Positions 20,126 through 44,949 are shown, numbered from the stretch's first letter. The stretch is 64,000 nucleotides of DNA from a virus (IMGVR_UViG_3300046512_000174:29466-93465); one strand, 5' to 3'. The notes: generated from the sequence alone by a model not told the origin. Translations and numbers: made by a program.

Positions 20126-20526
20126 TGGAAGAAATTAAAAATTGCGCGAATTCTCAGAATCCGAGCAGCATCGTCGACTTCGATGCCGAAAAACGTGCGC
20201 GCGAGGCTAAGTCTGACCAATCTGCGCAAGAACCAGTCTTCACGCTCATGCCGCACATCTGCCGACACTGCTTCGGCCGATTGGCGAGCCGTTTGAACGA
20301 TGGGCTTCAGGAGTACCGCTGCACGAATTGCGAGACGGTGACCGTGGCCCTTTCGCATGAGGAGGCCTGCTGCTGCGGGATGAAGATCCGCAAGCGCAAC
20401 GGCGCCGGCCGCAGTGGTGGCCCGATGGTCGATGCAGGGATCCGCTGCATCCCAAACCCCGAGAAAAGTCCAGCATTTCCAAGCGCTTACGTCGCTTGCG
20501 AGGTGGTCAAAATCAAGCGACCCTGA
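20125..20526 (+). CDS. Cys-rich zinc-binding protein
   Basis: CRHC, CTNC, CCCG; start coupled to the previous stop. Confidence 0.7.
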   Translation: MEEIKNCANSQNPSSIVDFDAEKRAREAKSDQSAQEPVFTLMPHICRHCFGRLASRLNDGLQEYRCTNCETVTVALSHEEACCCGMKIRKRNGAGRSGGPMVDAGIRCIPNPEKSPAFPSAYVACEVVKIKRP

Positions 20527-20613
20527 TTCGCAATCAGGGCATCTGCAACAAAAAACCCTTATAAATCAACGTCATTCCGTGCGCCGCTGGATTCTAGGGC
20601 GCACATAGGGCGC
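20521..20613 (+). repeat. Composite IR + DR element, copy 1
   Basis: CCCTGA-TTCGCAA-TCAGGG; GGGCGC-ACATA-GGGCGC at 20597. Confidence 0.8.
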
Positions 20614-20712
20614 AGACCTTTTTCGCTTAACCCAGCGCATTTGCTAAGGCATTGATCATATTTGATTGATATACTTGCACCCTTCGCTGCACTCACGATT
20701 CGGGGGAACACC

Positions 20713-21141
20713 ATGGATTCATCACCGCAACCACGCCTGCCAGTTGTGTACATCGCCGGGCCTTACCGCGCCGCGACGCAAGCCGGCATCGAGCTGAACA
20801 TCCAAGCCGCTCGGTCGATAGGCCTGCAAGCCATTCGACGTGGCTGGTCGCCGATCATTCCGCACTGCAACTTCGCGCAGCTGGATCTGGTCGACCCGGC
20901 CATTGGCGACAGTTTCTGGCTGGCCGCGACCATGGAGCACATGCGCCGGGCCGACGTGGTGCTGCTGGTGCCGGGCTGGGAGAATTCGACCGGCACTCAG
21001 GCCGAGGTGCGGGAAGCGAACCGCTGGAATATTCCGGTGTTCGGATCGCTCCGCCAGCTGCCGGACGCCACCGAGTACATGGCCGACTGTGAAAAAATCA
21101 ACACTGTTCGCCGCGTCGTGATGGCAGGTTCGCCCACATGA
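20713..21141 (+). CDS. DUF4406/DUF1937-like nucleoside deoxyribosyltransferase-fold protein
   Basis: VYIAGPY...PGWENSTGTQAE. Confidence 0.75.
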   Translation: MDSSPQPRLPVVYIAGPYRAATQAGIELNIQAARSIGLQAIRRGWSPIIPHCNFAQLDLVDPAIGDSFWLAATMEHMRRADVVLLVPGWENSTGTQAEVREANRWNIPVFGSLRQLPDATEYMADCEKINTVRRVVMAGSPT

Positions 21142-22472
21142 ACCAGACCGAACTCCCATACCGACTGCACCTCGGCGACTGCCTCGAAGTCTTGCGCTTT
21201 CTGCCGGATAACTCGGTCGACAGCGTCGTGACCGATCCGCCGTATGGCATTCGGTTCATGGGCAAGGCGTGGGATGGCAAGGACATCGAGGAGCGCACTG
21301 CGCACCGCGCCGGGATGCCATCGCACGACGCTGCATGCGGCGAAACCGGTGGCCATCGGTCGGTCGCCGCCGAAGCGGGCAAGTACGACCTGACCCCGGA
21401 CGGCATGAGGGCTTTTCAGGCCTTCACGTTGGAATGGGCATCGGAGTGCTTGCGGGTTCTCAAGCCCGGCGGCCACCTGCTGTCGTTCGCCGCCGCCCGG
21501 ACCTATCACCACATGGCGGTCGGGATCGAAATGGCTGGCTTCGAGATCCGCGACCAGATCATGTGGGTGTTCGGCTCAGGCTTTCCGAAGTCGCACAACC
21601 TCAAGGGCGATCGCGCTGGATGGGGAACTGCGCTCAAGCCAGCACACGAACCGATCTGCATGGCGCGAAAGCCTCTGATCGGCACGGTGCTGGCAAACGT
21701 CGCGGCGTTCGGGACTGGCGCGTTGAACATCGACGCCTGCCGGATCCAGACTGGCGACAACCTGAACGGTGGCGCCTACGTCGACGGCGGTCGCAAGTCG
21801 GTCTCGGATTCGCTGCGTCAGGGCAGCGGCATGAACGCCGTTGGCTCATCGGCGGGCGAATACGTCCAGCCATCAGGTCGATGGCCAGCCAACCTGATCC
21901 ACGATGGCTGTCCAGAGGTGGTGGCGATGTTCCCCGCCGAGGCCGGCGCATCCGCTCCGGTCAAGGGCACCGAGCCAACCGCCAACGGATTCAGTGGTGC
22001 GGTTTCCTACAGCGGAATGCGCGAGCGCGTCGAGGGTGCATTCCACGGTGACAGCGGCAGTGCCGCACGGTTTTTCTACTGCGCCAAGACCAGCCGACGC
22101 GATCGCAACGAGGGGCTGGTCGATCCCGGGCCGCAGTTCAAGCGCGGCACCACGCTGCGAAAGGTCGAGAACACCGACACCAAGGGCAACAACCATCCGA
22201 CCGTCAAGCCTACCGACCTGATGGCGTACCTGCTGCGACTGGTCACGCCGGTTGGCGGCACCACGCTCGATCCGTTCCTCGGCAGTGGTAGCACCGGCAA
22301 GGCCGCGATGCTCGAAGGTTTCGAGTTCATCGGGATCGAAAAGGAAGCGCCGTACATGGCCATCGCCAGCGCTCGGATCCGTCACGCTCACGCAGCCGCC
22401 GTCACCGCTGCCGATCTGGCGGACGCTGTCGCCAACCCGGTGCAAGCCGACCTGTTTGGGTTGCTGGCATGA
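21138..22472 (+). CDS. DNA N6-adenine/N4-cytosine methyltransferase (beta class)
   Basis: VTDPPY, HPTVKP, LDPFLGSGSTG. Confidence 0.92.
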   Translation: MNQTELPYRLHLGDCLEVLRFLPDNSVDSVVTDPPYGIRFMGKAWDGKDIEERTAHRAGMPSHDAACGETGGHRSVAAEAGKYDLTPDGMRAFQAFTLEWASECLRVLKPGGHLLSFAAARTYHHMAVGIEMAGFEIRDQIMWVFGSGFPKSHNLKGDRAGWGTALKPAHEPICMARKPLIGTVLANVAAFGTGALNIDACRIQTGDNLNGGAYVDGGRKSVSDSLRQGSGMNAVGSSAGEYVQPSGRWPANLIHDGCPEVVAMFPAEAGASAPVKGTEPTANGFSGAVSYSGMRERVEGAFHGDSGSAARFFYCAKTSRRDRNEGLVDPGPQFKRGTTLRKVENTDTKGNNHPTVKPTDLMAYLLRLVTPVGGTTLDPFLGSGSTGKAAMLEGFEFIGIEKEAPYMAIASARIRHAHAAAVTAADLADAVANPVQADLFGLLA

Positions 22473-22837
22473 ACGCCTGCAGCTGGATTCATGACGTCGT
22501 CACGCTGGCCGATGGCCGCAAGATCGCCAGCAACAGCGAAGAGTGGCGCGCAGAATGTGAGGCGCGCCACGTCCTGCGTATGAACCACACCGCGCGCACT
22601 GAATTCATGACCTTCATCGAACAGCGACGTGGCGCAGCTGCTGCCGAAAGCCTTCGCGCCTGCATCGAGGCGACCGAACCGGCCTACGTGCTGGAGCTGC
22701 CGAACAAAGCCCAGCGCAACGCCTATTTGCGCACGGTCGAGCTGAATCAGGGCGAGAACGCATCCGAGCACCTGCGCAACCGCTGCATGGACCTGCATGG
22801 CAAGCGTGAAGCCGCTTGTGCGGTGTCTGCCGCGTAG
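22469..22837 (+). CDS. Hypothetical phage protein
   Basis: SEEWRAECEAR motif. Confidence 0.7.
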   Translation: MNACSWIHDVVTLADGRKIASNSEEWRAECEARHVLRMNHTARTEFMTFIEQRRGAAAAESLRACIEATEPAYVLELPNKAQRNAYLRTVELNQGENASEHLRNRCMDLHGKREAACAVSAA

Positions 22838-23297
22838 CGCATAATTGAGCAATGACGCCGTGATCCCCACGGCTTTATGGTGATCCTATGAACGTATTTG
22901 AATTCATGAGTAAGCATCCGATCCTTACCGTCATCCTGACCCTGATCATCTGTGGCAGCATCAGCGACGCGTTTCGGGATGTGATCAGTGTCGGGTGGTG
23001 CCAATGATCATCCCAGTGTTTGCCCTGATGTTCTTGGCCCAGCACATTCTGCGCGGACCGCGCCGGTGAGACTGCAAGTGATGGCCGTCACCGGTCACTT
23101 CCAGTACGCGTGGACGAACGTGCAGAACATTCGATCCGGCTACCTGCGTGCCCAGCGCTGCAATGATCCCGGTAAAGACCTGCCGTACAGCCGCATTCGG
23201 TGGAAAAAATGAAAATCCTTGTCCTGCTGTACGCGCTGGATCTGCCGATTGAGTTCGAGATCCGCCGCCACCTGCTGCTGCGTATCCGGGGGCTTCG

Positions 23298-23591
23298 ATG
23301 AGCCTGACCGGTCGCACGCGCTACCGCACCGGCTGGTTCGGCTGGATCATCCTGCAGGTCGAAGAAACAGCGCTTCAAGCACATGAAGGCACCGAAGGCC
23401 GTGGCACCGACTGGCTGCCAACGGGCCGTAAGTGGCGAGACGCCAAGACCGAAGACTTTACCGAGTCCAGTGTCCGTCCGCTCTTTCGTGATGCTCCAAT
23501 GCCCTACCCGGGCCAGCGCCCACAAACCGAACGCCGACCGCTGCCAGATATGGTTCCACCGGCACCGCCCGCCCCACCAACCGGACGATAG
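23298..23591 (+). CDS. Hypothetical phage protein
   Basis: LTGRTRYR...LQVEE...WRDA motif. Confidence 0.65.
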   Translation: MSLTGRTRYRTGWFGWIILQVEETALQAHEGTEGRGTDWLPTGRKWRDAKTEDFTESSVRPLFRDAPMPYPGQRPQTERRPLPDMVPPAPPAPPTGR

Positions 23592-23784
23592 ACCACATGA
23601 CCCAACCGACCACGATGAAACGCCTGTACGCCGACGATGGCAGCTACGCCGGTGTTTGCGCCGTCACCGCTGATGATCGCATTGCTCAGATGTTCCGCTA
23701 TCGCCCGGGCGTCCGAATGGAGCTGACCCGCATGTCCATGGCCGTGCGCCTTGGGATCACCCGTATTCTTCTGGAGCGTCGCGC

Positions 23785-24267
23785 ATGAGCGTTATGAAAA
23801 CCGAGGTGTTCGAAACCCTTAATCAGCGGATCATCGTCGAGACGCCCGTGGTCACCCGCGAGCAGCTGCAAGCCGCGCTGAGCTGCTTCGTGGGGCGACT
23901 GGTTACACCAGAGCTTCAAAGGGATATGCAGGTTACGGTCACTATGCTGCTCGCGCCTAAGATCACCATCGAGGAATGCTTGCCACGGAGCAGCCTGTTG
24001 ATCCAGCTGCCGCTCTACCAGCACATCTCGGTCGGCCATCGGCAAGTACGCGCGCTGAAGGTATCCGCTGTCATCCCGAACCCGCGCGGCATCGAACTGC
24101 ACTTCGAGAACACCCGCTACGCGCCGATTCAGGTTTCCAACCGCTGGAACATCGACTGGGCGCCAGAGCCGGGTGGCTACTACGGCCATGCTGAGAATGG
24201 CGAGCCGTTCTACATGGGCGCCGATGGCTTCAAGGAAAACTACACCATGATCGAGGTCGGCGCATGA
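23785..24267 (+). CDS. Hypothetical phage protein
   Basis: VRALKV...PGGYY...F..NYT pattern. Confidence 0.7.
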   Translation: MSVMKTEVFETLNQRIIVETPVVTREQLQAALSCFVGRLVTPELQRDMQVTVTMLLAPKITIEECLPRSSLLIQLPLYQHISVGHRQVRALKVSAVIPNPRGIELHFENTRYAPIQVSNRWNIDWAPEPGGYYGHAENGEPFYMGADGFKENYTMIEVGA

Positions 24268-24520
24268 ACCTGTCCCGCGTGCTCGACATCCTGATCCCGC
24301 GCTTCATGACCGAGGACGCAGCGGCTGATCTCCACTTCTGCGATCACTGCAACAAGCCGCACCCGCAACCAGTCTGCTCGATGAAGGATATCGAACCCGG
24401 CGAGGTCTTCGCGGGCATCATGACCGTGCGGTTCTTCAACCTGTTCGGCCTGTCGCTGTTCCCGCGCTTCGACGGCGTGATGCGACCATGGGTCAACCCC
24501 CACGACAAGGCTGAGCCCTG

Positions 24521-24958
24521 ATGGCGAACATTGACGAAATCCGGCAGGACCGGTCGGCCGACCGCGACGCCATTCAAGCACAGATGGATGACTACCTGCG
24601 CAATGGCGGCATGATCAGCAAGGTGGACTGGGCCGGCAACGTTGTCGGCTTTGCCAGCGAGACACCATCCGGACCTCGCCCGATTCCGAAGGGCATGAAC
24701 TTCAATCCGCCGATCAATAGCGATCGAACGGCGAAGCTCGCTCCCACAGTGCCAGCCCCGGCCAGCAAGGCTTTGCCGGTCAAAAAGGTCGAGTTCGCTC
24801 CCACAGTGGAAATCGCACCGGCGCCGGTCACTCGCCGGGTGAAGCCAGCGCCGACCTCCACCGTCATCGATATCGTGCCCGAGCTGCGCCGCATCCGCGC
24901 TGACGCCGAGCGCGCACTGGCTCGGCTGAACGCCGCTGCCGAAAGGCGAACCGCGTGA
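24521..24958 (+). CDS. Hypothetical protein with SutA-like N-terminus
   Basis: IQAQMDDYLRNGGMI motif. Confidence 0.6.
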   Translation: MANIDEIRQDRSADRDAIQAQMDDYLRNGGMISKVDWAGNVVGFASETPSGPRPIPKGMNFNPPINSDRTAKLAPTVPAPASKALPVKKVEFAPTVEIAPAPVTRRVKPAPTSTVIDIVPELRRIRADAERALARLNAAAERRTA

Positions 24959-24961
24959 CAA

Positions 24962-25053
24962 CCCTGACCAGTGATCAGGGTGTCAGAGGCGCAAACACCC
25001 GCAGACGCTGACCGCCTGCGTACACACCGACAGTTCGGGCGCCATAAGGGCGC
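24962..25053 (+). repeat. Composite IR + DR element, copy 2
   Basis: CCCTGA-CCAGTGA-TCAGGG; GGGCGC-CATAA-GGGCGC at 25037. Confidence 0.8.
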
Positions 25054-25244
25054 GAAGCCATGGAGAACCGCATGATCGAGACACCTGAAAACTGGGAGGT
25101 ACTGGCCAAGTCGCTGAGCGATCCGCGCGCCAACCACCAGTGCAAGACCTGCAGCGGCAAGGGCATTCACAAATGCCCCGGCTCGAAACCGGCACCAGTT
25201 CGCTCGGTCGCCGATCATGAGGAACTGCTGGCCAAGGCCGATCG

Positions 25245-25541
25245 ATGAGCAGCGTATTCCACGGCGAGCCGGGCGGCCATGCCCGGTCTGTGCGCGACGT
25301 CACCTTCGGAACACCGAAGCGGCCATCGACCGGCAACCAGAAAGGGCACAAGCCGCTGCTGACCGACGCGGAAATCCTTGAGATGCGTGCGCTCAGTGAA
25401 TTCTCCGGCTGGACTCGCGAGCAGCTGATGGCTCGTTTCGTCGTCGATTACGACATGGTGTACCGCGTGCTGTCGGGCGTGACCCGGTCGCGCTTGGTCG
25501 CCACCCGCAAACACCTACCGAAGAATCTGGAGTCCGCATGA
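25245..25541 (+). CDS. Small helix-turn-helix protein
   Basis: LTDAEILEMR...QLMARF...VYRVLSG. Confidence 0.6.
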   Translation: MSSVFHGEPGGHARSVRDVTFGTPKRPSTGNQKGHKPLLTDAEILEMRALSEFSGWTREQLMARFVVDYDMVYRVLSGVTRSRLVATRKHLPKNLESA

Positions 25542-25810
25542 TCGACAAAGAGCTGTCGCTGATCGTTTACCCGGTTGAACTGGGTGAGGATCCGCCATTC
25601 TGGGTGGCTGAGTCTCAGCACTTCAAGTACCTGCACCCGCTCGACGGCAAGGAGGAGGCTTTCCGCTTTCAGCAGAAGGGCGCCAGCGCAGAGGAGGCGC
25701 GTGAGAAGGCGCAGAAGCAGCTGGACTGGTTCAATGGCGATCGAGGTCACTGCATCACCGAGATCGAAGACTTCACCGCCGAGCAGCTGGCCAAGGTGAC
25801 GCCGGTATGA
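25538..25810 (+). CDS. Hypothetical protein
   Basis: Coupled ORF. Confidence 0.6.
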   Translation: MIDKELSLIVYPVELGEDPPFWVAESQHFKYLHPLDGKEEAFRFQQKGASAEEAREKAQKQLDWFNGDRGHCITEIEDFTAEQLAKVTPV

Positions 25811-26112
25811 GCCAAAGAGCGGAGTACCTCGACTATGCGACTCTGGACAGCGGAATGATGCATCGCGTGCGGGTGCGCGCCGAGACCGTCGATATCGGTG
25901 AAGCGAAGGACGTTCCTTGCGGCCCGGTAGCTGTCGCCCTGACCCACTTGAACTACGGCTGGTATTCGTGGCGCCAGAAAGCCGAGTTCGGATTCATGCG
26001 ACTGGTGCGCCGCAAGCCTCTCGCGGCACAAACGGCCGCACTCATCTCGCACGACCGGATTCTCAACGGTCAGATCGCGTCGCGCGGGCTGGTGGATTTT
26101 TACATCACCTGA
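25807..26112 (+). CDS. Hypothetical protein
   Basis: Coupled ORF whose stop is the TGA of element copy 3. Confidence 0.6.
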   Translation: MSQRAEYLDYATLDSGMMHRVRVRAETVDIGEAKDVPCGPVAVALTHLNYGWYSWRQKAEFGFMRLVRRKPLAAQTAALISHDRILNGQIASRGLVDFYIT

Positions 26113-26199
26113 TACGGAATCAGGGCGTCAGCCTGCTGTGCGATCAATAGACACTGATGGCTTAAACGCTGAACTTCACTTCGGGCGCCAACCGGGCGC
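26107..26199 (+). repeat. Composite IR + DR element, copy 3
   Basis: ACCTGA-TACGGAA-TCAGGG; GGGCGC-CAACC-GGGCGC at 26183. Confidence 0.8.
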
Positions 26200-26217
26200 A
26201 AAAATCAAGGGGTATGC

Positions 26218-27030
26218 ATGAACACTAAAGATAATCTGAACACCGCTTCGATGCTCGGCAACACCATCGCCGGGCTACTGGTGATTTCCACCAACAACAG
26301 CGCGGCAGTGCAAACGGCAGTCGGTGATTTGATCGTTGCCATGGCAGCCAAGGCCCGAGGTCTGCTGAATGGCGATCAGCTGGAATTATCCATTCCGGAT
26401 GGCCGGCCGGGCCGCGCCTACGATGCCGCTGCCGCGCAATGCCCTGAAGCCAAAGAGCAGCAGGTCGCTGCGGGCGCGGAATGTGCGAAATGCGGACAGG
26501 TCGATGCTGGACAAACCGGCGAGTACCCTTGCGCCGATTGCGGCTTGCCAAAAACGCACGACTCCGACTGCTCGACCAACAATCGCGGTGTGCCGGAACT
26601 GCTCGGCAAGTGCGACTGCTCGATCGCGCCGTGTGAGCACAATGCCCCTGCTTCCGACTGCCCGTGCGCGAGCGAGTCGACGCGCAATCTTGGGCGCCCT
26701 CACAACCTCAACTGCAACTTCGAGCACTTCCTCGCTTACACGGGCCTCATGAATGAGTCGCCTGAGATCATCGCCAAGGTCAAGCTCGGTTACGCTGATC
26801 AGTGGCGCGCATGCGTGCAGCTCACCGAGCTGGAGTCTGCTCTCAATCAAACAGCGCCGATCGCCACCATGCGGACGGCTGTGACAGAACATCTGCGGCG
26901 TGGTTTTGCTGATGGTCACATCGACCATGTCGTTCGCGTTGTGTCCGACTCGGCCGGCAGCACCGAGTTTTATATCCGTCCGCTGAAGGGCTCTGGCGAA
27001 ACCACCCAGTTCGTCGTCCTCAACGACTGA
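26218..27030 (+). CDS. Cys-rich mosaic phage protein
   Basis: GQTGEYPC..CG, HDSDC motifs. Confidence 0.7.
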   Translation: MNTKDNLNTASMLGNTIAGLLVISTNNSAAVQTAVGDLIVAMAAKARGLLNGDQLELSIPDGRPGRAYDAAAAQCPEAKEQQVAAGAECAKCGQVDAGQTGEYPCADCGLPKTHDSDCSTNNRGVPELLGKCDCSIAPCEHNAPASDCPCASESTRNLGRPHNLNCNFEHFLAYTGLMNESPEIIAKVKLGYADQWRACVQLTELESALNQTAPIATMRTAVTEHLRRGFADGHIDHVVRVVSDSAGSTEFYIRPLKGSGETTQFVVLND

Positions 27031-27071
27031 TCAACCCAGCGCCACGGACGGCGCACCACCGAGGCTTCACC

Positions 27072-27458
27072 ATGACCCCTGTTGAATTCTGTTACTGGCT
27101 TCGCGGCTCGACCGAGATGCACCCGGTCGCACAACCAACCCCTGAGCAATGGGCAATGATCCGCGAGCACGCTGGTCTGGCGACATCTGACCTCAGCCCG
27201 GCGCCGATCAGCATTGCGTGCGATCGGTTCGCGCAGTGGATCCACGGATTCGCGCAACTGGCCATCGAAGGCCCCAGCCCAGATCAGTGGCTGATCATCC
27301 AAGAGCGGCTGCGTCAGGTATTCATCAAGGTTACATCGACGCCTGCATTCCGGCTCGACAATAGTGGGCTGCGCACGCTGGAGCTTCGGCAAGAAGACCG
27401 AATTGCCGAATTGCTTCGCGAACAGAACTATCCGCTGCTGCACACCGCCACCTGCTGA
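27072..27458 (+). CDS. Hypothetical protein with tandem duplicated domain
   Basis: FCYWLRG...PTPEQWAMI and FAQWIHG...PSPDQWLII. Confidence 0.7.
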   Translation: MTPVEFCYWLRGSTEMHPVAQPTPEQWAMIREHAGLATSDLSPAPISIACDRFAQWIHGFAQLAIEGPSPDQWLIIQERLRQVFIKVTSTPAFRLDNSGLRTLELRQEDRIAELLREQNYPLLHTATC

Positions 27459-27501
27459 CCACCATCGCCGGCCCATCCGTGGCCGGCCTTCCCCTGCGTC
27501 G

Positions 27502-27523
27502 TCGTGACAATACCCTCGCTCAA
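27502..27523 (+). promoter_or_regulatory. Late promoter motif
   Basis: TCGTGA-CAA-TACCCT. Confidence 0.7.
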
Positions 27524-27550
27524 TACCCTACCCAACCCACGGAACGAATA

Positions 27551-28069: not shown

Positions 28070-28072
28070 TCG

Positions 28073-29578: not shown

Positions 29579-29784
29579 TGGATACCGTTCAGCTGGTAGA
29601 ACTCAATACCCTGTCGCCCGGTGACTGGGTTCGCTTCATCGGCGGCGATATCGGCATCATCCGCGACAAAGTCACGGTGCCCGGGTACCGGCAATCCTAC
29701 GTCGAGGTCCCCGGCGATCGTTACCCGGTGCGAATCACGCCGCTCGACGTCAAGGTCGAACACCTTCCCGACCACCATCCCTGA
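29578..29784 (+). CDS. Hypothetical protein
   Basis: Coupled ORF ending in the TGA of element copy 4. Confidence 0.55.
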   Translation: MDTVQLVELNTLSPGDWVRFIGGDIGIIRDKVTVPGYRQSYVEVPGDRYPVRITPLDVKVEHLPDHHP

Positions 29785-29859
29785 CTACCAATCAGGGAAT
29801 CAGCCAGATGACGCGCCGCTTTGAGCGCGTTTTCTGTTTTTAGGGCGCCAATAGTCCGC
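29779..29859 (+). repeat. Composite IR + DR element, copy 4 (second DR degenerate)
   Basis: CCCTGA-CTACCAA-TCAGGG; GGGCGC-CAATA-GTCCGC at 29843. Confidence 0.7.
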
Positions 29860-34951: not shown

Positions 34952-35598
34952 AAGAACGTGGGATTTTGTTCAACGACGACATGGTTCGAGCGATCAACTC
35001 AGGCCGCAAGACTGTCACGCGGCGGCCAATCAAGGTACAGCCGCCAGCCAGTCACCGTTGGCGCGGGTGGGTAGCCGATAGCACTGACTCGAAGAAAGTA
35101 GGCATGACCAGTTGGGGAATCGGTGACGGAGTCATCACCGATGCGGTTTATGCGCGATGCCCATACGGACAGCCCGGCGATCGCCTGTACGTGCGTGAGG
35201 CGCACTGCATCAACGATTATCGCGGTGCGGCGGTTCCGGAAGCAGAGCGCGCCGAGTGCCAGATCGTTTATCGCGCAGACGGCCTGCCAGACTGGGAAGG
35301 CGAGGAAAGTCTGATCCGCTGGACGCCGAGCATTCATCAGCCGCGCTGGACCAGCCGAACTCTGCTGGAAATCACCGCAATTCGCGTTGAGCGAGTGCAG
35401 GACATTACCAATGAGCAGGCGCTTGCGGAAGGCGTGAAAAGCGTCGAGCGAGTCATCGACCCAGAAGGTAACGACTACTCGCCATGCGAGCTGTTTGGTG
35501 GCTTGTGGGTAATGGTCAACGGGATTGAGTCGTGGAATGCAAACCCGTGGGTGTGGGCTATTGAGTTCAAGGTCATCACCGAAAACCCTGATAGTTAA
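34948..35598 (+). CDS. ASCH/PUA-like phage protein
   Basis: MKERGILF..MVRAI.SGRKTVTRR, CPYGQPGDRLYVRE, WTPSIH, NPWVWAIEF. Confidence 0.85.
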   Translation: MKERGILFNDDMVRAINSGRKTVTRRPIKVQPPASHRWRGWVADSTDSKKVGMTSWGIGDGVITDAVYARCPYGQPGDRLYVREAHCINDYRGAAVPEAERAECQIVYRADGLPDWEGEESLIRWTPSIHQPRWTSRTLLEITAIRVERVQDITNEQALAEGVKSVERVIDPEGNDYSPCELFGGLWVMVNGIESWNANPWVWAIEFKVITENPDS

Positions 35599-35677
35599 TC
35601 AGGGTGACAACAGAATCAGGCCCAGTATCCACTGGGCTTTTTTGTGCCCGATTGGAAATAGGGCGCACATAGGGCGA
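35586..35677 (+). repeat. Composite IR + DR element, copy 5 (contains a terminator at 35619-35643)
   Basis: CCCTGA-TAGTTAA-TCAGGG; GGGCGC-ACATA-GGGCGA at 35661. Confidence 0.8.
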
Positions 35678-35750
35678 AGTACCGTTTCTGCTTCCCCGCT
35701 GCGCGTTAATCATTTATGATCATTCAATCAACGCGAACAGGATAAAGCTC

Positions 35751-36590: not shown

Positions 36591-36683
36591 CCCAGATGCT
36601 GAATCAGGGCGTCATCCGCACGCAGCCAGCGCCGGCCGGCAACTGTCAATGATCGCTCAATAGTTCGGGCGCCAGCCGGGCGC
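36591..36683 (+). repeat. Composite IR + DR element, copy 6
   Basis: CCCAGA-TGCTGAA-TCAGGG; GGGCGC-CAGCC-GGGCGC at 36667. Confidence 0.8.
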
Positions 36684-36699
36684 TCAGGAGGATGAATCA

Positions 36700-36918: not shown

Positions 36919-36979
36919 AAGTCGTGACCATAAGCTGAAGTTCCTTGATTACCCAACCCACGCAAAAGGTAACCCCGAG

Positions 36980-37276
36980 ATGAAAAGTTTCCGAAGTTTT
37001 GGTTTTGCACTGGCCATGGCCTGTCTGGGTCTCGCCAGCTACGTCGCTGAACCGCTGCTGCGCATCTGCGAGCCGATGTTCCGCTATGTCTCCCACGGCA
37101 TCGACGCGATGGCGTGCGGCGTGGCCAAGCTGACCCGCGAGCTGGTGCATTCGTTCACCGGCGCCGAGCAGCGAGCAACGGGCTTCGGTAGTGGTCTGGA
37201 TCGCGAAGGTAACGGCTTCCGTCAATCCTCGGCAGCCGATATCGGCGCGCAACCGCGCGTGTCGCTCGCGATCTGA
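36980..37276 (+). CDS. Small late-expressed protein with hydrophobic N-terminus
   Basis: Late motif TCGTGA-CCA-TAAGCT at 36922; terminator at 37296-37325. Confidence 0.55.
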   Translation: MKSFRSFGFALAMACLGLASYVAEPLLRICEPMFRYVSHGIDAMACGVAKLTRELVHSFTGAEQRATGFGSGLDREGNGFRQSSAADIGAQPRVSLAI

Positions 37277-37574
37277 ATCACCACAAAAGTGTTTGAAAAA
37301 GCCCGCATCTGTGCGGGCTTTTTTGTTTATTATTAGTGGGCTAGCGCCGCTTAAAGTCCCGTGCAAACGGATGGAACAATTGGCCTACACATTGACGCTG
37401 GTGTCCAGCAACTGGCAGTCGGGGTTGTCCAGCCCCAGCACTCTGCAAGGCAACCTGCCCTTGGGGCCTGCGACTGTCGGGTGGCCGTTTAAGATGCCGC
37501 CACCAACCACGAAGAAGTCAGCCCGGCAACGCGCCCGGGCTTTTTCGTGGTCGTCGTGATGCGACGATTGCACC

Positions 37575-40500
37575 ATGACCGAACTTATCGCTGCTCCGGC
37601 AGGCCAACGTCGTGTGGCGCTGCTCATCAAAGCCAAGATCGCCCATCAGGCCGGTTACTACCTGCTGAACGGCCGCTGGCACTCCATCCACCAGCACAAG
37701 CCGGCGCCAAAGGGTGTCCCGGTGGCCGCGCACCCGAAGGCCGCGCATGCCGAGCATGTGAAGCCTTTCCCGTTGCCAGACGAGCAGGTCGAAGCGCTCA
37801 AGCTGCCGCCTGAGAACGTCAACTCCGGCACGTACAACAAGCAGCTCGACAGCCTGCTCGGTTACGCGGCCAACGGCGATGCCACGGCGATCCTCGGCAT
37901 GAACCTCGGCACCAACACCTACGGCAAGAAGTTGGCGAAAGTGGCCAACTACCTGCTGCAAGGGATGGGCGTAACCGAGGAGTATCAGGTCGCACCCGGT
38001 CAAAAGGCTGGTGAGCACCACGCGGTCAAGCAGACCCCGGCGCCGGTCGAGACGACTGCTCCGGCAGCGAATGAACCAGTGATCGCCGCTGCGGCGGTCA
38101 TCGAGGCCGCCAAAGCCGACGAGCCTGTGGTCGAGGCCGTTGTCGAGGCGCCTGCCGCACCGTTCATGGCTTACCCGTCGTCCGGTCCACTGGCCATGCC
38201 CGAGTTCGTTGAAGGCAAAACCACCACCGGCGTCGTGGATTACTACCAGACTCAGGCGATGAAGGTCATCGACATGGCAGAGTCTGGCGACCTCGACGGT
38301 CTGGTCCAGATGAAGCAGTCCGGCATGGTGCCGAACAGCAAGGGCAAAATCAGCAATACGTGGGCGGGAAAGACCGAGAACAGCAAAAAGCTGATCGCAC
38401 TGCACGACAACGCGGTCGAGCTGACTGTTGAGAACGCCCTTGATGCGCTGCCACCAGTTGCCGCCGTCGCAGAGCCAGAGCCGGTCGTGGTTGAAGCGCA
38501 AGTGGTCGCCGCCCCGGTCGTCAACACTGACCTGACATCGCAGATCCCGTGGGAAAAACTCAGCTCGCCTGAGACCAAGGGTGACGGCTCGCCGAACAAG
38601 GAAGGGATCAACGCCAACAAGAAACTGGCCGCGATCAAGGCCGCTGCCGAGGCTGGCGATATCGCCACGCTCGAAGGCATGAAGTTCGGGATCAACACCT
38701 ACGGCAAGAAACTCAATCAGGCCAAGGCGATCGCGCTGGCGTCGCTTGAGGTAATCCCGGCAGCGCCTGAACCTGTCGCAGTGGTTACCGCTCCGGTTAC
38801 CCCGCCGCCAAACACGCTTGCCATGCAGCTGGCAGACGCGAAAGGCCCGCTGGGCAAAATGGCCGTGGCTGAGCAGCACGTCGTCAAGAATGGCAAGTCG
38901 CCCGAGACCTACAAGCAGATCGCAGAGGCACATGAAGATCTGGGCAATGCCGACTCTGCCGAGCACTGGAACGCCAAGGCTGTCGATCTGGTGACCATGA
39001 ACGTCCTGTCTGGCGCGATGGCGGCAGACGGCACCGTCAATGGATCCACCAAGATCGCGGTTGAGCACATCCTGAACAGCGCTGATTCGCTCAAGGCTCA
39101 GGCTCAGGCTATCGACGCGCTCAATGAGCACGGGCATACCGGCGCTTCCAAGGCGATCCAGATGGCGATGGATGCCACGCTGCTGGATACCTTCAAGACC
39201 AATGTTTCTGCCAGCGACGAAGAGCATGAAGCGATGGCCGTGGCCAAAGATTATCTGGCTACCGGCGGCCCGTCGGCAGCCAAGGTTGACCACATCATCT
39301 CCACGCTCGAGGAGAACGGTTTCACCACCGGTGCTCAGGAATACAAAGAGGCCTACGGTCTGGACGAGGGGCCGAACGATGGCGACACCAAGCAAGGCGC
39401 TGATGGCCAGCTGGTGTTCCAGAACGGGCGCTGGCACAAGGTCAAGACTGACGATGCGGAAGCCGCTCCGGTACCGCTGAGCGCGATCGAGCATCAGGCC
39501 GTGATGGGCTACCTCAACAGCGCCGAGGCCGATGAGCTTGAACACGCTGCCGGTAAGGCCATTTTCCAGACCTTGTCCGAGGAGGAGAAACAGGCGCTGA
39601 ACGTCGAGGCTCTGAACTCCAAGCCAAAAGCTGAGCTGCATCCGCTGGACGCCATTCCGCTGCCAGATCTGTCGCACCACCTGACGCAGGCCGGTGTCGA
39701 CAAGGTCATGGCCGGGCTTGAAAAGCTAAAGGAGAACGCGAAGACCGAAGGCGCCAGCGCTTTCAAAGGCACGCTGAAGAAAATGTCGGCAAGCGGCAAG
39801 CTGATCACCAAGCTGCCGGGGAAATACGGCAATTTGTCGCTGAAAGTCGTCGGGTATGCGAACAGCCCTGAGCACTATGGAACTCTGGTTCACCAGTACG
39901 TTGAAGACCTGAAGACCGTGGCTGGCGGAAAGAACGTGAAACCCAAGCCGGCAACCGCCCCGGCACCGACGCCGCAGCCATATGGCCAGCCGCCGATCGA
40001 GTCGATGGACAACTGGAAACAGGTCGGCCCGCAGGGCGGCTCCAACCCGGGCGGCAAGTTTGTCGATGAGGCTGGGGTTGAGTGGTACTGCAAGTTCCCG
40101 AAAAGCGAGGACATCGCGAAGTCCGAGGTGCTGGCAGCCAAGCTGTACGGCGCCGCCGGGATTGAAGCGCAGGACGCCAAGCTCATCACCAAGGATGGCA
40201 AGATCGGTATCGCCAGCAAGTGGGTCGACGTCACCAAGGCGCCGGCTGCCGCTCTGGCCAAGGCTGATGGCGCCGCCGCCGGGTTCGCGGTCGATGCGTG
40301 GCTGGGCAACTGGGACGTGGTCGGTCTGGAATACGACAACCTGCAGCTGGATTCGAGCGGCAACGCCGTGCGCGTCGATGCTGGCGGCTCGCTCGAGTAC
40401 CGTGCGCAGGGAGGCAAAAAGACCTTCGGCGATACCGTGCTTGAGATCGACAGCCTGCGCGACAGCAAGATCAACCCGCAGTCGGCGAAGGTCTTTGGAA

Positions 40501-41744
40501 AACTGTCGCAGGCGGACATCACCGCGTCAGTGGCGAAAGTCTTGAAGGTCAGCGACTCGCAGATCTACTCGATGGTCAACGCCTACGGCCCGGGTACTCC
40601 CGAGGACAAGAAAAAGCTCGCGGAAACCCTGATCGCGCGCAAGGCTGACCTGCTGGCCAAGTACCCGAAAGCCAAGAAGACAAAGGTCATCACTTTCAAG
40701 CCGGAAAAGATCAGCGAGCCGCCGAGCTTCATGAGCTGGGGCAGCAGCGGCGCACCCGGCCCGTCGAGCAAGCTGTTCCTCAACGAAGCCAACGAAGCGG
40801 CCGTGCAAGCGATCTACGCGGCGGCCAAGACCGGCAGCGCGGACGCAGTCAAGGCTCTTAGCGCTGACACGTTCAACAAGAACACCGGCGAGGTCATCGG
40901 CAGCGCGCCGGTACTCGATCACCCATCGCAGCACGTAAAGGGTTACGCACAGCAGGCGCTCAACGAGATTCATCACCAGATGAATCCGCCGAAGCGCTTC
41001 CGGTTCGAGGGTGGCCACCCGCTGCACTCGCTCAACAGCGCCTATCCTTCGCACAAAGGCCCGCCGCACAGTGACGCGGTCGAGAAGGTCGGCAAGTTCC
41101 TCATGCTCGGCAGCCCGGGGATCGTATCGCTGGATGCGCTGGCACTGCCGAAGATCACCCACGCCAGCGGTGCATTGACCAAAGCGACTTATTCCCCTGC
41201 TGCACAGGCCGCGCTCAAGCAGATGCCGGAAACCCAGAAACAGGCGATCAAGTCATACACCGGCAGCGGTTATGGCAACATGAACAGCTCACTGTGGACC
41301 GGCAACCCGAGCGGTGCCGCCAAGTCTGCTGGCGAGGCGTTGCACGCGCTTGGGCATGAGATTGCGCCCGGCACCGTGCTGTCACGAAAGCTCAGTGTGC
41401 ATGGCACGGCGCTCGACCAGATCCTCAAGTCGGCTGGCAAGGTGCTACAAGAGCCGGCTATTATGTCGACATCCATTCGCCCTTCATCGTGGTCGGGCAA
41501 CGTGCATCTAAAACTGCATGTTGGCCCGGGCGTGAAAGGCCTTTGGGTTGGCCCGGGTTCCACCGGCGGTAAAGGCGCGCTGTCGCTGAACGCCGGTGAG
41601 GACGAACTGATTTTGCCACCGAACACCCGACTGCTGATCATGTCGGTAAAACATGCGGGAGGCGGCGACTCTGATGGGTTCGGCACCGGCTCCAGTCACA
41701 TTGTCGAGGCAGTAATTCTGCCAACCCAGCAGGCGGCCTCATGA
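37575..41744 (+). CDS. Polyvalent virion protein: repeats + HipA/PI3-4K-like kinase + VIP2-type ADP-ribosyltransferase
   Basis: Kinase-like GGSNPGG, WYCKF, SEVLA, DAWLGNWD, RVDAG; ART SYTGSGYGNMN, SRK, MSTS, GEDELILP (R-S-E); leaderless late promoter at 37554. Confidence 0.8.
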   Translation: MTELIAAPAGQRRVALLIKAKIAHQAGYYLLNGRWHSIHQHKPAPKGVPVAAHPKAAHAEHVKPFPLPDEQVEALKLPPENVNSGTYNKQLDSLLGYAANGDATAILGMNLGTNTYGKKLAKVANYLLQGMGVTEEYQVAPGQKAGEHHAVKQTPAPVETTAPAANEPVIAAAAVIEAAKADEPVVEAVVEAPAAPFMAYPSSGPLAMPEFVEGKTTTGVVDYYQTQAMKVIDMAESGDLDGLVQMKQSGMVPNSKGKISNTWAGKTENSKKLIALHDNAVELTVENALDALPPVAAVAEPEPVVVEAQVVAAPVVNTDLTSQIPWEKLSSPETKGDGSPNKEGINANKKLAAIKAAAEAGDIATLEGMKFGINTYGKKLNQAKAIALASLEVIPAAPEPVAVVTAPVTPPPNTLAMQLADAKGPLGKMAVAEQHVVKNGKSPETYKQIAEAHEDLGNADSAEHWNAKAVDLVTMNVLSGAMAADGTVNGSTKIAVEHILNSADSLKAQAQAIDALNEHGHTGASKAIQMAMDATLLDTFKTNVSASDEEHEAMAVAKDYLATGGPSAAKVDHIISTLEENGFTTGAQEYKEAYGLDEGPNDGDTKQGADGQLVFQNGRWHKVKTDDAEAAPVPLSAIEHQAVMGYLNSAEADELEHAAGKAIFQTLSEEEKQALNVEALNSKPKAELHPLDAIPLPDLSHHLTQAGVDKVMAGLEKLKENAKTEGASAFKGTLKKMSASGKLITKLPGKYGNLSLKVVGYANSPEHYGTLVHQYVEDLKTVAGGKNVKPKPATAPAPTPQPYGQPPIESMDNWKQVGPQGGSNPGGKFVDEAGVEWYCKFPKSEDIAKSEVLAAKLYGAAGIEAQDAKLITKDGKIGIASKWVDVTKAPAAALAKADGAAAGFAVDAWLGNWDVVGLEYDNLQLDSSGNAVRVDAGGSLEYRAQGGKKTFGDTVLEIDSLRDSKINPQSAKVFGKLSQADITASVAKVLKVSDSQIYSMVNAYGPGTPEDKKKLAETLIARKADLLAKYPKAKKTKVITFKPEKISEPPSFMSWGSSGAPGPSSKLFLNEANEAAVQAIYAAAKTGSADAVKALSADTFNKNTGEVIGSAPVLDHPSQHVKGYAQQALNEIHHQMNPPKRFRFEGGHPLHSLNSAYPSHKGPPHSDAVEKVGKFLMLGSPGIVSLDALALPKITHASGALTKATYSPAAQAALKQMPETQKQAIKSYTGSGYGNMNSSLWTGNPSGAAKSAGEALHALGHEIAPGTVLSRKLSVHGTALDQILKSAGKVLQEPAIMSTSIRPSSWSGNVHLKLHVGPGVKGLWVGPGSTGGKGALSLNAGEDELILPPNTRLLIMSVKHAGGGDSDGFGTGSSHIVEAVILPTQQAAS

Positions 41745-42241
41745 ACGAACAACTGAACCACCACAACGACGCGGCCGGGCTTGTACAGTCGGCCGAGCAA
41801 GCATCAGGCCCGCTGCCTTACCTTGGCGACCTGCACGACGTCGACCAGATCCTACGCAAGATGACCGAGGACGTCACCGGGCGCTTTGCAGCGGTTGGCC
41901 GTGGGCAGATGCCGCAGCAGGAGGCCGCAGAAGCCGATCAGGCCGCGTGCATCCGGATGGGCGAGGTCTTTGATGGTCAGGATCTCGGATACAACTCAAT
42001 CGAGCACTGGAACGGCAACGGACTGGCCAACTACATCCGCAATCGGATGGGCGAGACCGTGCAGCCCGCAGAGGACGATGAGCAGATCATCACGCAGGCC
42101 TTCGCCATGTTCGTTCACCAGATCTATGGTGCGATCAACGAGGCCGGCGCAAACCCGGACGAGGCGAAGCTGGCCGAGACACTGAACGAAAATATCCGTT
42201 CGTTTACATGGGTGCTGATCGGGATCGAGTCCAATGAGTAG
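41741..42241 (+). CDS. Acidic helical protein of unknown function
   Basis: 166 aa, overlaps both the ART gene and the Nudix gene. Confidence 0.75.
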   Translation: MNEQLNHHNDAAGLVQSAEQASGPLPYLGDLHDVDQILRKMTEDVTGRFAAVGRGQMPQQEAAEADQAACIRMGEVFDGQDLGYNSIEHWNGNGLANYIRNRMGETVQPAEDDEQIITQAFAMFVHQIYGAINEAGANPDEAKLAETLNENIRSFTWVLIGIESNE

Positions 42242-43034
42242 TTCCTTCGAGGCCCAGATGGGCATGCTGTTCGGCGAGGTTCCGGCTGCCGAGGTTCTGG
42301 CCAAGTCGAATGTGCCCGGCTACACGCGCCGCGACGGCACCTATGTTCGCCCCCATCGCCGCGCTGGCGAGGCTGTGGCCACTGCGGCAGCGCATCCGCA
42401 CCCGCGACCGGGCGAGAAAGGCGAAAAGGTCCTGATCAAGGATCCGCACCATGCCTCGACGCCAAGTACTTGGCACCACCCGGATGCGGTCGCGACCTTT
42501 GTGCCTGATGGCGATGTCCCGAAGTCTATCAACGGCATCGGCCTGCGCGAATGGACCGATCACCCGCAAACCAGCGAAGGCTGGGATTATGTGGATGGGC
42601 AGGCCGATGACCTGATCGAACCGCCATTCCACCTGTCGCCCGGCAAGAAAGCTGCGTCCGGCGTGATCATCGAAGAACCCGACGGTCGCGTCTGGCTGAT
42701 CCATCCGACCAACCAGTTCGGCGGATACGAGGCGTCGTTCCCCAAGGGCACCGCCGAACCTGACCTGTCGCTGCAGGCCAACGCCATCAAGGAAGCGTTC
42801 GAGGAGACTGGGCTCAAGGTCGAGATCACCGGGTTCCTCGGCGATTACTCACGCACCACGTCGGTCGCGCGCATGTACACCGCCAAACGCGTCGGCGGGA
42901 CGCCGGTGAATATGGGCTGGGAAACGCAGGCCGTCTCGCTGGTGCCGAAGGCGCATCTGTACGAGCAGCTGAACATGCAATCCGACTACGGCATCGCCGA
43001 AGATATCGGCGCGACTGATGGCGGCAAGAAATAA
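42234..43034 (+). CDS. Nudix hydrolase with N-terminal LAKS/GYTRRDGT segment
   Basis: Variant Nudix box FPKGTAEPDLSLQANAIKEAFEETGL. Confidence 0.85.
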   Translation: MSSSFEAQMGMLFGEVPAAEVLAKSNVPGYTRRDGTYVRPHRRAGEAVATAAAHPHPRPGEKGEKVLIKDPHHASTPSTWHHPDAVATFVPDGDVPKSINGIGLREWTDHPQTSEGWDYVDGQADDLIEPPFHLSPGKKAASGVIIEEPDGRVWLIHPTNQFGGYEASFPKGTAEPDLSLQANAIKEAFEETGLKVEITGFLGDYSRTTSVARMYTAKRVGGTPVNMGWETQAVSLVPKAHLYEQLNMQSDYGIAEDIGATDGGKK

Positions 43035-43109
43035 CTGCACAGTCATTGCGGCATTGCTCAAATATGATTAAGATGGCCCTACGTTAACCAAACACGAAGG
43101 GCCATTATC

Positions 43110-43469
43110 ATGTGGGTATGTATTTCAGATGCGTTTCTCTCGATCGTTCACAAAGACTGCGCGCCAGATGAGCTGCTGGTGCGCGCACGCCGTCAAGGCG
43201 ATATCAAAAAGCTGATCCCCTGCGCTACCGAGACCAAAACCGTCGGCAACGACTATCTGTATCGCGCCGTGGTCAAGCGCGCCGTTGTCGCCGAAGCGCT
43301 GACCAAACTGGCGATGTCGACCATTGACTACGACAACTTCAAAAACACTGTCCGCGACAACAAGCTGCACTCGGCATTCAACCGCATCTGGCATGTGATG
43401 GCCGACATGCAGGTCATAGCGCCCTACAGCCGCCCAATCAAAACACGCCAACGCTCATTGCTCAAATAA
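43110..43469 (+). CDS. Conserved phage protein
   Basis: LLVRARR, DYLYRA, IDYDNFK; operator at 43054-43071 upstream. Confidence 0.75.
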   Translation: MWVCISDAFLSIVHKDCAPDELLVRARRQGDIKKLIPCATETKTVGNDYLYRAVVKRAVVAEALTKLAMSTIDYDNFKNTVRDNKLHSAFNRIWHVMADMQVIAPYSRPIKTRQRSLLK

Positions 43470-43510
43470 GAGCATTCGGCTTACACTCGCCTGAAATTAA
43501 GGGGGCATCA

Positions 43511-44167
43511 ATGAGCTTCGAAGTGTACTACTCAACCCGCGACCCGGAAGCGCTCGCCATCCATGACAAGGTCATGGCCGCAAAGCTTGCGTGGCAGGAG
43601 GATGCACTCAAGGTAGTCAATGACCTTGGGTTCGGCGCCTACAGGACTGCTGATTTTGGCATCGTGTACGGATTCCTGTTGAAGTGCGAGGCTGGTGATA
43701 AGCGCTACACCGGTCCAGAGATCGAAGGCTTCAAAGGCGGTAAGCGCGTCGGCGGTCTCGGCGCTCAGTGGTTCGAATACAGCATCCATGGCAAGCACGC
43801 AAAGACGAAGGATCTCCACACTATCGTTGGTGACCTGCACGAACGCCATGCCCAGCCAGAAAGCAGTCAAGGGTTTGGTGTGCGCACCGCAGAAGGCATT
43901 GTCTGCGATCGTCTATCCGTTATGGCTCAATGCCTGAACGGTAATCGCCTTGCCGTCAGCCAGCTCTGGATGATGGACGATCGCGAGATCTGCATTCAGG
44001 TGCCGGTCGAAAAGAAAAAAGGCGTCTGGATTCTTCCGCAGCTGAGCGGCATCTGGACTGAGTTGACCACCAGCCAAATGGTCGAGCGCTTCAACCGGCA
44101 TAACGCCGCCGTGGCGTCGGGCGCGGAAACCGAGTCAGAGTTTGAATTTGAGGATGACAGCGAATGA
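43511..44167 (+). CDS. Hypothetical protein
   Basis: 218 aa; operator/promoter at 43458-43487. Confidence 0.7.
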   Translation: MSFEVYYSTRDPEALAIHDKVMAAKLAWQEDALKVVNDLGFGAYRTADFGIVYGFLLKCEAGDKRYTGPEIEGFKGGKRVGGLGAQWFEYSIHGKHAKTKDLHTIVGDLHERHAQPESSQGFGVRTAEGIVCDRLSVMAQCLNGNRLAVSQLWMMDDREICIQVPVEKKKGVWILPQLSGIWTELTTSQMVERFNRHNAAVASGAETESEFEFEDDSE

Positions 44168-44874
44168 ATGGCGAAGAAAAACCGCTGGATCTGCGCGTGC
44201 TGGGCATGGCTGCCACGCTCGCAGAGGGCGTTTATAAGGACGATTGGGAGAGCGCGGCGCAGGTCGGCGCAGTACCTTACGGCGTCCATCAAGTGGTGAT
44301 GAGCGGCGGTGACATGATCGCACACTGCCCTGACAACTCACCGCGCAGCTCAATCTTGGCCGAGTACATTGCCAGTATGACACCGCAGGTTGCCATGCGG
44401 CTGATCCGTGTCGCCGAAGCGAGCAAACGGCTGAGCGAGAACCTGCGCATATCTCAAGGCCTTGCAGCTGCAAATGTCACCTCGGTCAAAATCAACCCGG
44501 GCGACGTGCTTATCATCCGCATCGCTGAAAGTGAAGGGCCGACGACACACGACCACTTCGCTGAGCTGGCGCGCAACCTGAGCCATCATTTCCCGCCGGG
44601 TACTCCGGTGCTGTTGACCAACGATATCGACATCAGCGCGCTGAATGAGGAAGCGATGCGCAAGGCTGGGTGGGTGAAAGAGCCGCAGTGGAACCCCATG
44701 AGCGAGGCGCCTCCTTTTCCGTTCTCTGGCGATATTTGCCTGACTAACGGACGCGTTATCAAAAATGCCTCTTGGTGCTCAGGGTATTGGACGTCGACTT
44801 ACAAGCCGTCGACCTTTGAGGCTCGTCAGGTTTCGCACTGGCGCCATCCGACGCCGGAACCAAAAAAACCCTGA
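44164..44874 (+). CDS. Mosaic phage protein
   Basis: 236 aa; stop is the TGA of element copy 7. Confidence 0.7.
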   Translation: MNGEEKPLDLRVLGMAATLAEGVYKDDWESAAQVGAVPYGVHQVVMSGGDMIAHCPDNSPRSSILAEYIASMTPQVAMRLIRVAEASKRLSENLRISQGLAAANVTSVKINPGDVLIIRIAESEGPTTHDHFAELARNLSHHFPPGTPVLLTNDIDISALNEEAMRKAGWVKEPQWNPMSEAPPFPFSGDICLTNGRVIKNASWCSGYWTSTYKPSTFEARQVSHWRHPTPEPKKP

Positions 44875-44949
44875 TCCTCAATCAGGTATTGCCAAAGTAA
44901 AATCAACCACTTACAAACAATTCAGCAATTCAGGGCGCAGATAGGGCGC
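44869..44949 (+). repeat. Composite IR + DR element, copy 7, with IHF consensus
   Basis: CCCTGA-TCCTCAA-TCAGGT; AATCAACCACTTA at 44901-44913 matches WATCAANNNNTTR; GGGCGC-AGATA-GGGCGC at 44933. Confidence 0.8.

Follow-up and report, generated by a model that had tools for sequence, protein, structure and literature searches.

The stretch of DNA analysed here, called the window in the following, comprises 64,000 nucleotides (bases 29466-93465) of a 93,465-bp virus record, IMGVR_UViG_3300046512_000174, which we refer to as G000. The virus is a temperate myovirus with genes for sheath, tape measure, baseplate, portal and a GpA-type large terminase. Two N6/N4 methyltransferases are encoded as well, and so is a 1389-aa protein ending in an ADP-ribosyltransferase. 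The nearest cultured relatives are the Pseudomonas phages Dolphis (MT711888, on P. putida) and Jeremy (large terminase, TerL, 71% identical), followed by phages of Escherichia, Enterobacter, Yersinia and Aeromonas, Pseudomonas phage Touem01 and Bordetella phage PHB04. At the DNA level, pieces of methyltransferase genes were the sole matches when close relatives were sought in the phage collection. The subject of this study is a set of seven bipartite sites, each composed of an inverted repeat (IR) and a direct repeat (DR) at a short distance downstream. All seven are situated in a single block of rightward-oriented genes for accessory and virion proteins, which extends from the genes of the Cys-rich proteins F65 and F66 on one side to the terminase gene on the other.

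The IR, CCCTGA-N7-TCAGGG, is present in four exact and three one-mismatch copies, all on the plus strand, and the expectation from shuffled sequences is 0.00 exact copies. Seven co-oriented copies at 20521, 24962, 26107, 29779, 35586, 36591 and 44869 had been described in a first-pass annotation, made from the sequence of the window alone, and the motif search with shuffles reproduced all of them. The DR, GGGCGC-N5-GGGCGC, is offset from the IR by +76, +75, +76, +64, +75, +76 and +64 in sites 1 to 7, in agreement with the annotated distances of 75-76 bp in five copies and 64 bp in two; the DR of site 4 is degenerate (GGGCGCCAATAGTCCGC at 29843). No further IR with up to one mismatch and no further IR-paired DR were found in the whole 93.5-kb genome. 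The open reading frame upstream ends within the IR at sites 1, 3, 4, 5 and 7, and 0-3 nt 5′ of it at sites 2 and 6. Each DR is followed by a ribosome-binding site (RBS) or a promoter, with 2-9 nt between the DR end and the RBS at sites 2, 3, 6 and 7. The two observations on gene context made in the first-pass annotation, a gene stop in or beside each IR and a new RBS or promoter behind each DR, are therefore correct for all seven sites. Intrinsic terminators lie between IR and DR at sites 4 and 5.

Motif scans and protein-anchored scans detected bipartite sites also in Dolphis (7 sites), in the 95.5-kb provirus G001 (9 sites) and in the genomes G002 to G008, giving 5-10 sites per genome in this family. 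They are absent from the enteric relatives and from Morganella phage Mecenats66. A scan of genome contigs for a half-IR combined with a DR yielded, among the matches listed, chance matches only. Across phages whose F65 proteins share 45-80% identity, the sites are positionally orthologous and stand in the same order.

A sequence logo was built from 24 sites. It contains a conserved core element, [C/A]CCWGAY-N4-AR-TCWGGG-NN-TCA, and a conserved arm element, TTC-GGGCGC-NN-ATA-GGGCGC-A, and all 24 sites keep a spacing of 64 or 75-77 bp between core and arm. A conserved -10 or -35 element was not found in this logo. The W bases of the two IR arms vary independently of each other, and five of the nine G001 sites would mispair as a hairpin. 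This lack of covariation marks the IR as a double-stranded DNA site for a protein, not as a hairpin, an RNA element or a cruciform; on the same ground, and because the real terminators lie 3′ of the IR, its interpretation as an RNA hairpin, terminator or nut-like element was rejected. The perfect consensus for integration host factor (IHF) that had been annotated in copy 7 was confirmed at 44901-44913, in the spacer, and is the sole match within the window. With up to one mismatch, the consensus occurs in 6 of 28 spacers compared with 1% of random windows, a 20-fold enrichment, and the other spacers carry terminators or T-tracts instead. All 7-bp centres of the IRs are mutually different within each genome. 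Between genomes, three of five G005 centres equal G000 centres though spacers and flanks are unrelated, and one of these, TGCTGAA, is found again in G007. An origin of the centres from host tRNA loops was dismissed on inspection, since they are without U33. In addition, the 24 sites contain a weak third block, AAaCCC, at IR +32 to +37 (C in 19/24 and 17/24), about 13-18 bp 3′ of the IR, for example at window positions 20553-20558; it might serve as an additional contact for a protein or as a bend.

The seven sites of G000 differ in their surroundings. Site 1 (20521..20613; IR 20521-20539 with centre TTCGCAA, 57-bp spacer, DR 20597-20613) holds the F66 stop codon in its left IR arm and has an early sigma70/operator promoter 3′ of its DR; its position directly behind F66 is conserved in every integrase-bearing relative. 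Site 2 (24962..25053; IR 24962-24980, centre CCAGTGA, DR 25037-25053) is followed by the RBS GGAG, which begins 8 nt past the DR. At site 3 (26107..26199; IR 26107-26125, DR 26183-26199) the RBS begins 7 nt past the DR, and the centre TACGGAA is also present in G002, G004 and G005. Site 4 (29779..29859; IR 29779-29797) has a 45-bp spacer with an intrinsic terminator at 29810-29831, the degenerate DR at 29843-29859, and the centre CTACCAA, which is one base off the tRNA-Arg loop CTACGAA. Site 5 (35586..35677; IR 35586-35604, centre TAGTTAA, spacer terminator 35618-35639, DR 35661-35677) precedes an early-type operator/promoter. The centre of site 6 (36591..36683; IR 36591-36609, DR 36667-36683), TGCTGAA, recurs unchanged in G005 and G007 and almost unchanged in Dolphis, and the RBS AGGAGG begins 2 nt past the DR. 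Site 7 (44869..44949; IR 44869-44887, centre TCCTCAA, DR 44933-44949), whose 45-bp spacer harbours the perfect IHF consensus, heads the operon leading to the large terminase.

A caveat of the first-pass annotation was that no recombinase is encoded in the window. This caveat was lifted by the full genome: a tyrosine integrase of the heterobivalent P4 type is encoded at genome positions 20069-21355 on the minus strand, 8.1 kb upstream of the window. It combines the domains Arm-DNA-bind_3 (PF13356) and Phage_integrase (PF00589) and is the only tyrosine recombinase in the genome. The annotation had proposed a scan of the full replicon and of relatives for a tyrosine recombinase accompanying the sites, and such a co-occurrence is indeed seen. 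The Pfam integrase model detected an integrase in 6/6 site-bearing genomes searched and in 0/5 site-less relatives, and the presence of the integrase in G001 and G002 was also seen by tblastn/blastn.

A link between integrase and sites comes from the attachment sites of relatives. P4-family integrases insert in tRNA anticodon loops, and the provirus G001 adjoins a tRNA-Arg(ACG) gene. The attL of G001 contains a tRNA segment reaching from the anticodon loop to the 3′ end and 9-12 (T/A)TCGGGCGC repeats, which include GGGCGC-N5-GGGCGC pairs of the DR form, and both components are also found in Dolphis, G005 and G007, in the attP located between int and the next gene; in these regions the arm sites are thus TTCGGGCGC repeats, some of them in pairs with N5 between the members. 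Exact matches to the DR pattern are confined, in the complete genomes of the relatives G005 and G007, to attP and the dispersed sites, and the reversed-pattern control gave 0 matches. The tRNA-Arg anticodon arm, ACCAGACTACGAATCTGGG-GG-TCA, matches every conserved position of the IR logo, and a weight matrix for IR(+TCA) trained on other genomes scores it with 20.1 bits, which places it among the true sites of G001 (14.8-31.4) and above shuffles (<=15.5). Since the dispersed sites share both core and arm motifs with the true attP and attL of relatives, we read them as attL-like integrase sites, and the lambda-type att architecture put forward in the first-pass annotation is strongly supported.

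Neither in G000 nor in its near relative G002 was an attP found beside int. At positions 21356-21482 of the G000 genome, upstream of the window, only an operator palindrome, TTAATCATAAATGATTAA, 33 bp from the int start, is left in place of attP, and the situation in G002 is alike. Despite the loss of attP, int shows a ratio of nonsynonymous to synonymous substitutions (dN/dS) of 0.058 at dS 0.17, which indicates strong purifying selection. Such constraint on int after attP was lost implies that the enzyme is still in use, and no integrase-type sites other than the dispersed ones remain. The best-conserved part of the integrase is the arm-binding domain (65-77% identical, G006 included). The G006 integrase (L168:2204-3370) is chimeric, with an arm domain 72% identical to that of G000 and a core-binding/catalytic part of 18-23% identity. 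The conservation of the arm domain even in this chimera matches the invariant GGGCGC of the arm sites. An attP was also sought in a non-coding region of about 1.5 kb on the minus strand (window 52250-53820), and neither core nor arm cluster was found there. This region contains several tRNA-like pieces (T-loops GGTTCGAATCC, GGTTCGACTCC and GAGTTCAATTC) that ARAGORN does not call; the program reported zero tRNA genes for the window.

The position of the sites relative to the packaging start is a further regularity. Morganella phage Mecenats66 uses headful packaging from an experimentally mapped pac site (PMC9503643). Its pac cut falls where the homologues of F65 and F66 adjoin, and packaging proceeds towards F66, the genome running through the accessory block to the terminase. 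Mecenats66 belongs to the same terminase clade as G000, in which the Cys-rich pair F65 (19544-20125) and F66 (about 20122-20526), both on the plus strand, are homologous to the proteins that flank the mapped cut. By this homology the pac of G000 is predicted near window positions 20050-20125. Site 1 is located 0.4 kb downstream of this predicted pac; in each of the relatives the distance is 0.3-0.5 kb. All sites of G000 fall 0.4-24.8 kb downstream of it and those of relatives within 16-30 kb, even in G007 and G008, where the block is partly inverted behind the terminase. F65, with eight invariant Cys residues, and F66, which resembles a zinc ribbon (CxxC...CxxC), are conserved family-wide, with or without an integrase, and are candidates for a pac-recognition, small-terminase-like function 26 kb from the large terminase. 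A role of the two proteins as the factor specific for the bipartite sites was ruled out, because both are conserved in motif-less relatives too.

Taken together, each dispersed site is probably a miniature attL-like integrase site, with a core, a bend and two arm sites. The IR would represent two core-type half-sites (CCWGAY and RTCWGG) around a 7-bp overlap, and the DR two arm-type sites (TTC-GGGCGC) for the N-terminal arm domain of the integrase. The spacer of 45 or 57 bp would then need only to keep the helical phase and a bend, provided by an IHF site or by a terminator with its T-tract, so that two integrase protomers could link core and arm in the manner of the lambda attL intasome. Two core half-sites together with two arm sites about 55-80 bp from the core centre fit such a lambda attL-like complex, as does the enrichment of IHF sites in the spacers. 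That some mosaic joints fall at IR edges, for example at the left edge of IR7 in G000, G002 and G003, is also in line with this reading. Binding of the integrase to these sites, and any recombination at them, we infer from sequence comparison.

For the use of such sites, the centres are informative. Lambda-type tyrosine integrases normally need identical overlaps. As the 7-bp centres within a genome are unlike, crossover between different sites should be rare, and the sites would be orthogonal to each other like lox spacer variants. Recombination would most likely take place between two identical copies of one site, namely the end copies of one molecule, sister genomes or the orthologous sites of co-infecting relatives. 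If, as is probable, headful packaging proceeds rightward from a pac at the F65/F66 junction, successive terminal redundancies would tile the 25-kb site zone, an injected genome would carry one and the same site at both ends, and the integrase could circularise it without host RecA. We therefore tentatively propose, as the function that we favour although we hold it to be less than even in probability, that the sites are a lox-like, mutually incompatible set by which the integrase circularises any injected headful without deleting the DNA between different sites. The same sites would permit a clean exchange of modules between co-infecting relatives. If this is true, a lambda-type integrase would have a second job that is independent of integration, and the retention of int after attP loss would be explained.

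A number of observations weigh against this interpretation. The co-occurrence of integrase and sites is effectively one evolutionary event, because the site-less phages form one clade. G006 keeps about three sites with the usual IR despite the unrelated core-binding/catalytic part of its integrase. Relative to the core, the arm pair of the dispersed sites lies at +76/+87, but arm pairs of true attP lie at -132/-121, +114/+126 and +144/+155. With regard to cyclisation, the place of pac, the direction of packaging and the terminal redundancy are all extrapolations from a phage with a TerL of only 38% identity, and the intervals between sites, usually 2-4 kb, reach as much as 8.3 kb. The orientation of the sites follows that of the genes, with the IR at a stop and the DR at a gene start, even in the inverted blocks of G007 and G008; this strict orientation fits a transcriptional role and is not required by cyclisation. 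Finally, G002 is without the segment 34956-36588 and carries the IR of site 5 joined to the spacer and DR of site 6, a hybrid that demands either a crossover between unlike centres or microhomology.

The orientation of the sites is accommodated if the integrase, or an excision factor sharing the GGGCGC sites, serves as a transcriptional regulator or insulator at operon borders, blocking read-through or tuning the downstream genes. A precedent exists in the prophage KplE1, where IntS and TorI repress the intS promoter via attL (PMC2951348). The gene context is in line with such a role: an RBS follows the DR after 2-9 nt at sites 2, 3, 6 and 7, and other DRs directly precede early or late promoters. 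In addition, the stop codon of the upstream gene overlaps the IR, spacers can contain a terminator, and enteric relatives possess palindrome-dependent promoters in analogous gaps. However, mere binding would not call for a complete inverted core with a 7-bp spacer, and it accounts neither for unlike centres that are each conserved between genomes nor for the confinement of the sites to the zone downstream of pac. Moreover, with a DR that may be followed by an RBS, an early promoter or a late promoter, a single regulatory logic is not evident. We regard this explanation as rather unlikely. The integron-like array suggested by the first-pass annotation, in which the integrase would join different sites or site-bearing circles so that modules of 1-8 kb are captured, excised and reordered, was weakly supported. 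Att-like sites and an integrase are present, and the order of modules does differ: the block of the methyltransferase F68 stands behind site 1 in G000 and G005, and behind the F82/F164 blocks in G001 and Dolphis. G002, lacking the site 5-6 block, has the IR5/DR6 hybrid just described, G004 has one extra site, and variable genes surround conserved sites. A few joints coincide with IR edges: the homology between G000, G002 and G003 begins at the left edge of IR7, and the 19-mer of this IR is the same in G002 and G005 amid unrelated flanks, which in G005 are unrelated genes. Against mobile cassettes stand the centres, which all differ within each genome, the synteny of sites across phages with 45-80% F65 identity, which makes them fixtures and not mobile ends, and the lack of any identical-centre pair flanking a block. 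The blocks also have their own early or late promoters, and features of the IntI type, attC and attI are not present. Integrons resemble our sites in having co-oriented recombinase sites at gene ends that often hold the stop codon, with variable accessory genes between them. The sites described here differ in consisting of a 19-bp IR plus DR instead of a long imperfect attC palindrome, in delimiting multi-gene blocks, in being positionally conserved and in being associated with a P4-type integrase that has an arm domain. An integron-like mode of exchange is thus unlikely.

Promoter function without any involvement of the integrase appears very unlikely. Here the DR would be the core promoter or start of a middle promoter and the IR an activator site centred near -78 or -66, with sigma-54 dependence as a special case. 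The position at the head of operons, the helical phasing (64 vs 75-77 bp), the fit of the DR to GG-N10-GC and an ATA-GGG sequence reminiscent of a start site are compatible with it. But the same two motifs build attP and attL, there is no conserved -10 or -35, and half of the DRs are followed by another promoter. For want of a conserved -10 or -35, a sigma70 promoter between IR and DR was rejected as well. The enhancer/sigma-54 alternative of the first-pass annotation failed on geometry and on the missing activator. With the DR end 2-9 nt from a conserved RBS, a canonical sigma-54 start would cut the RBS, and the predicted start lies in or beyond this element at sites 3 and 6 and in relatives; a bacterial enhancer-binding protein (PF00158) was not found in the phage. 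Searches of the phage genome gave no match to a sigma70-family domain (PF04542) and none to a T7-type RNA polymerase (PF00940), the second being a weak negative because the PF00940 control was also without signal. The 1389-aa virion protein shows an ADP-ribosyltransferase domain only, and among about 70 proteins compared with Pfam and PHROGs no useful candidate for a phage activator emerged. We give practically no weight to a distributed parS-like centromere for plasmid-prophage partition, although bipartite phased boxes with IHF recall P1 parS and G000, being without attP, could be episomal. ParB_N (PF02195) was not found in a six-frame search, so that this alternative of the annotation was discarded; in addition, the motifs are those of attP, and the sites also occur in the integrated provirus G001.

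The preferred reading as attL-like integrase sites can be compared with known recombination systems. The lambda attL intasome, with its B-O-C′ core, the H′ IHF site and tandem P′ arm sites (PMC4880445), shares with the dispersed sites the inverted half-sites, the 7-bp overlap, a putative bend and tandem arms one helical turn apart. In contrast to lambda attL, each phage genome carries 5-10 of these sites, which have a single, one-sided arm pair and, like attB, the consensus in both core arms; the centres all differ, and the sites persist even where attP has been lost. As in the lambda- and P4-type systems, the integrase has a separate arm-binding domain, and the core model matches the tRNA-Arg anticodon arm, the attB of relatives. 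Compared with the true attP of relatives, the distance from core to arm is a different one. Phage P1 is comparable to the roughly 93-kb phage studied here as a temperate myovirus of similar size. Both have a phage tyrosine recombinase, and a recombination site just downstream of pac, in the region where the terminal redundancy falls, would be a common feature too, if G000 is packaged by the headful from the predicted pac, as is probable. The P1 site is a single, simple one of 34 bp, and the P1 recombinase has no arm domain. In the phages studied here the enzyme of chromosomal integration would find a second use, on a number of attL-like sites that are incompatible with one another and scattered across about 25 kb, a function suggested by analogy to P1, which cyclises by RecA or Cre-lox (PMC3973344).

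Two other kinds of dispersed phage elements resemble the sites in part. The PeSL promoter-terminator motifs of T4-like phages (PMC2839356, PMC4122927) are short conserved composite motifs at gene borders within hyperplastic regions, found at the joints of indels and replacements; they consist of promoters and stem-loops and act via homologous recombination, whereas an integrase core plus arm sites are seen here. The start-associated sequences (SAS) and extended SAS (ESAS) of Cluster K mycobacteriophages (PMC3203893) likewise combine an IR and a short asymmetric box just before gene starts and are co-oriented and conserved in the cluster. Their sequences are different, SAS overlaps the RBS and has a proposed translational role, and a link to attP arms is not reported. 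In our literature search no account of dispersed intragenomic att-like sites was found.

Some further features of the accessory block were observed. In the annotation of the enteric relative fHe-Yen8-01 (L028) many homologous proteins of this block, including the methyltransferase and the ADP-ribosyltransferase, are particle-associated. From these annotations it follows that the block between the sites largely encodes proteins that are carried in the virion and probably injected. Boxes of the form GTCGTGAY, which resemble late promoters, are present at window positions 36922-36935 and 37553-37577. The second is situated about 20 nt 5′ of the ATG of the 1389-aa ADP-ribosyltransferase and immediately behind strong terminators at 37294-37325 and 37520-37541, a position which suggests that this gene has a near-leaderless late mRNA. 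The integrase-less enteric relatives ECML-606-1 (L027) and fHe-Yen8-01 have a different repeated element in the analogous gaps of the accessory block. It is composed of a palindrome, ACGTC-N6-GACGT, abutting a TATAAT-like -10, a hairpin with a AACCCAACC loop, a T6 run and an ATG without an obvious RBS.

To our knowledge, a single function and a single site per element are known for heterobivalent integrases, which are textbook enzymes. We describe a family of temperate myoviruses of about 93 kb, including Pseudomonas isolates and relatives of a Bordetella phage, that carry 5-10 extra conserved attL-like sites each. New in this study are the pac-anchored map with the idea of cyclisation, the conservation and orthogonality of the centres, the dN/dS of an orphan int, a chimeric integrase in which the arm domain is conserved, and the enrichment of IHF sites. 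If the integrase works on the dispersed sites, this would be a new intraviral use of att and Int for genome cyclisation, for the programmed exchange of accessory modules or for gene control. The sites would then form a natural orthogonal set of recombination sites for one enzyme, which might be of practical interest, and they would explain the presence of orphan integrases in phages without attP.

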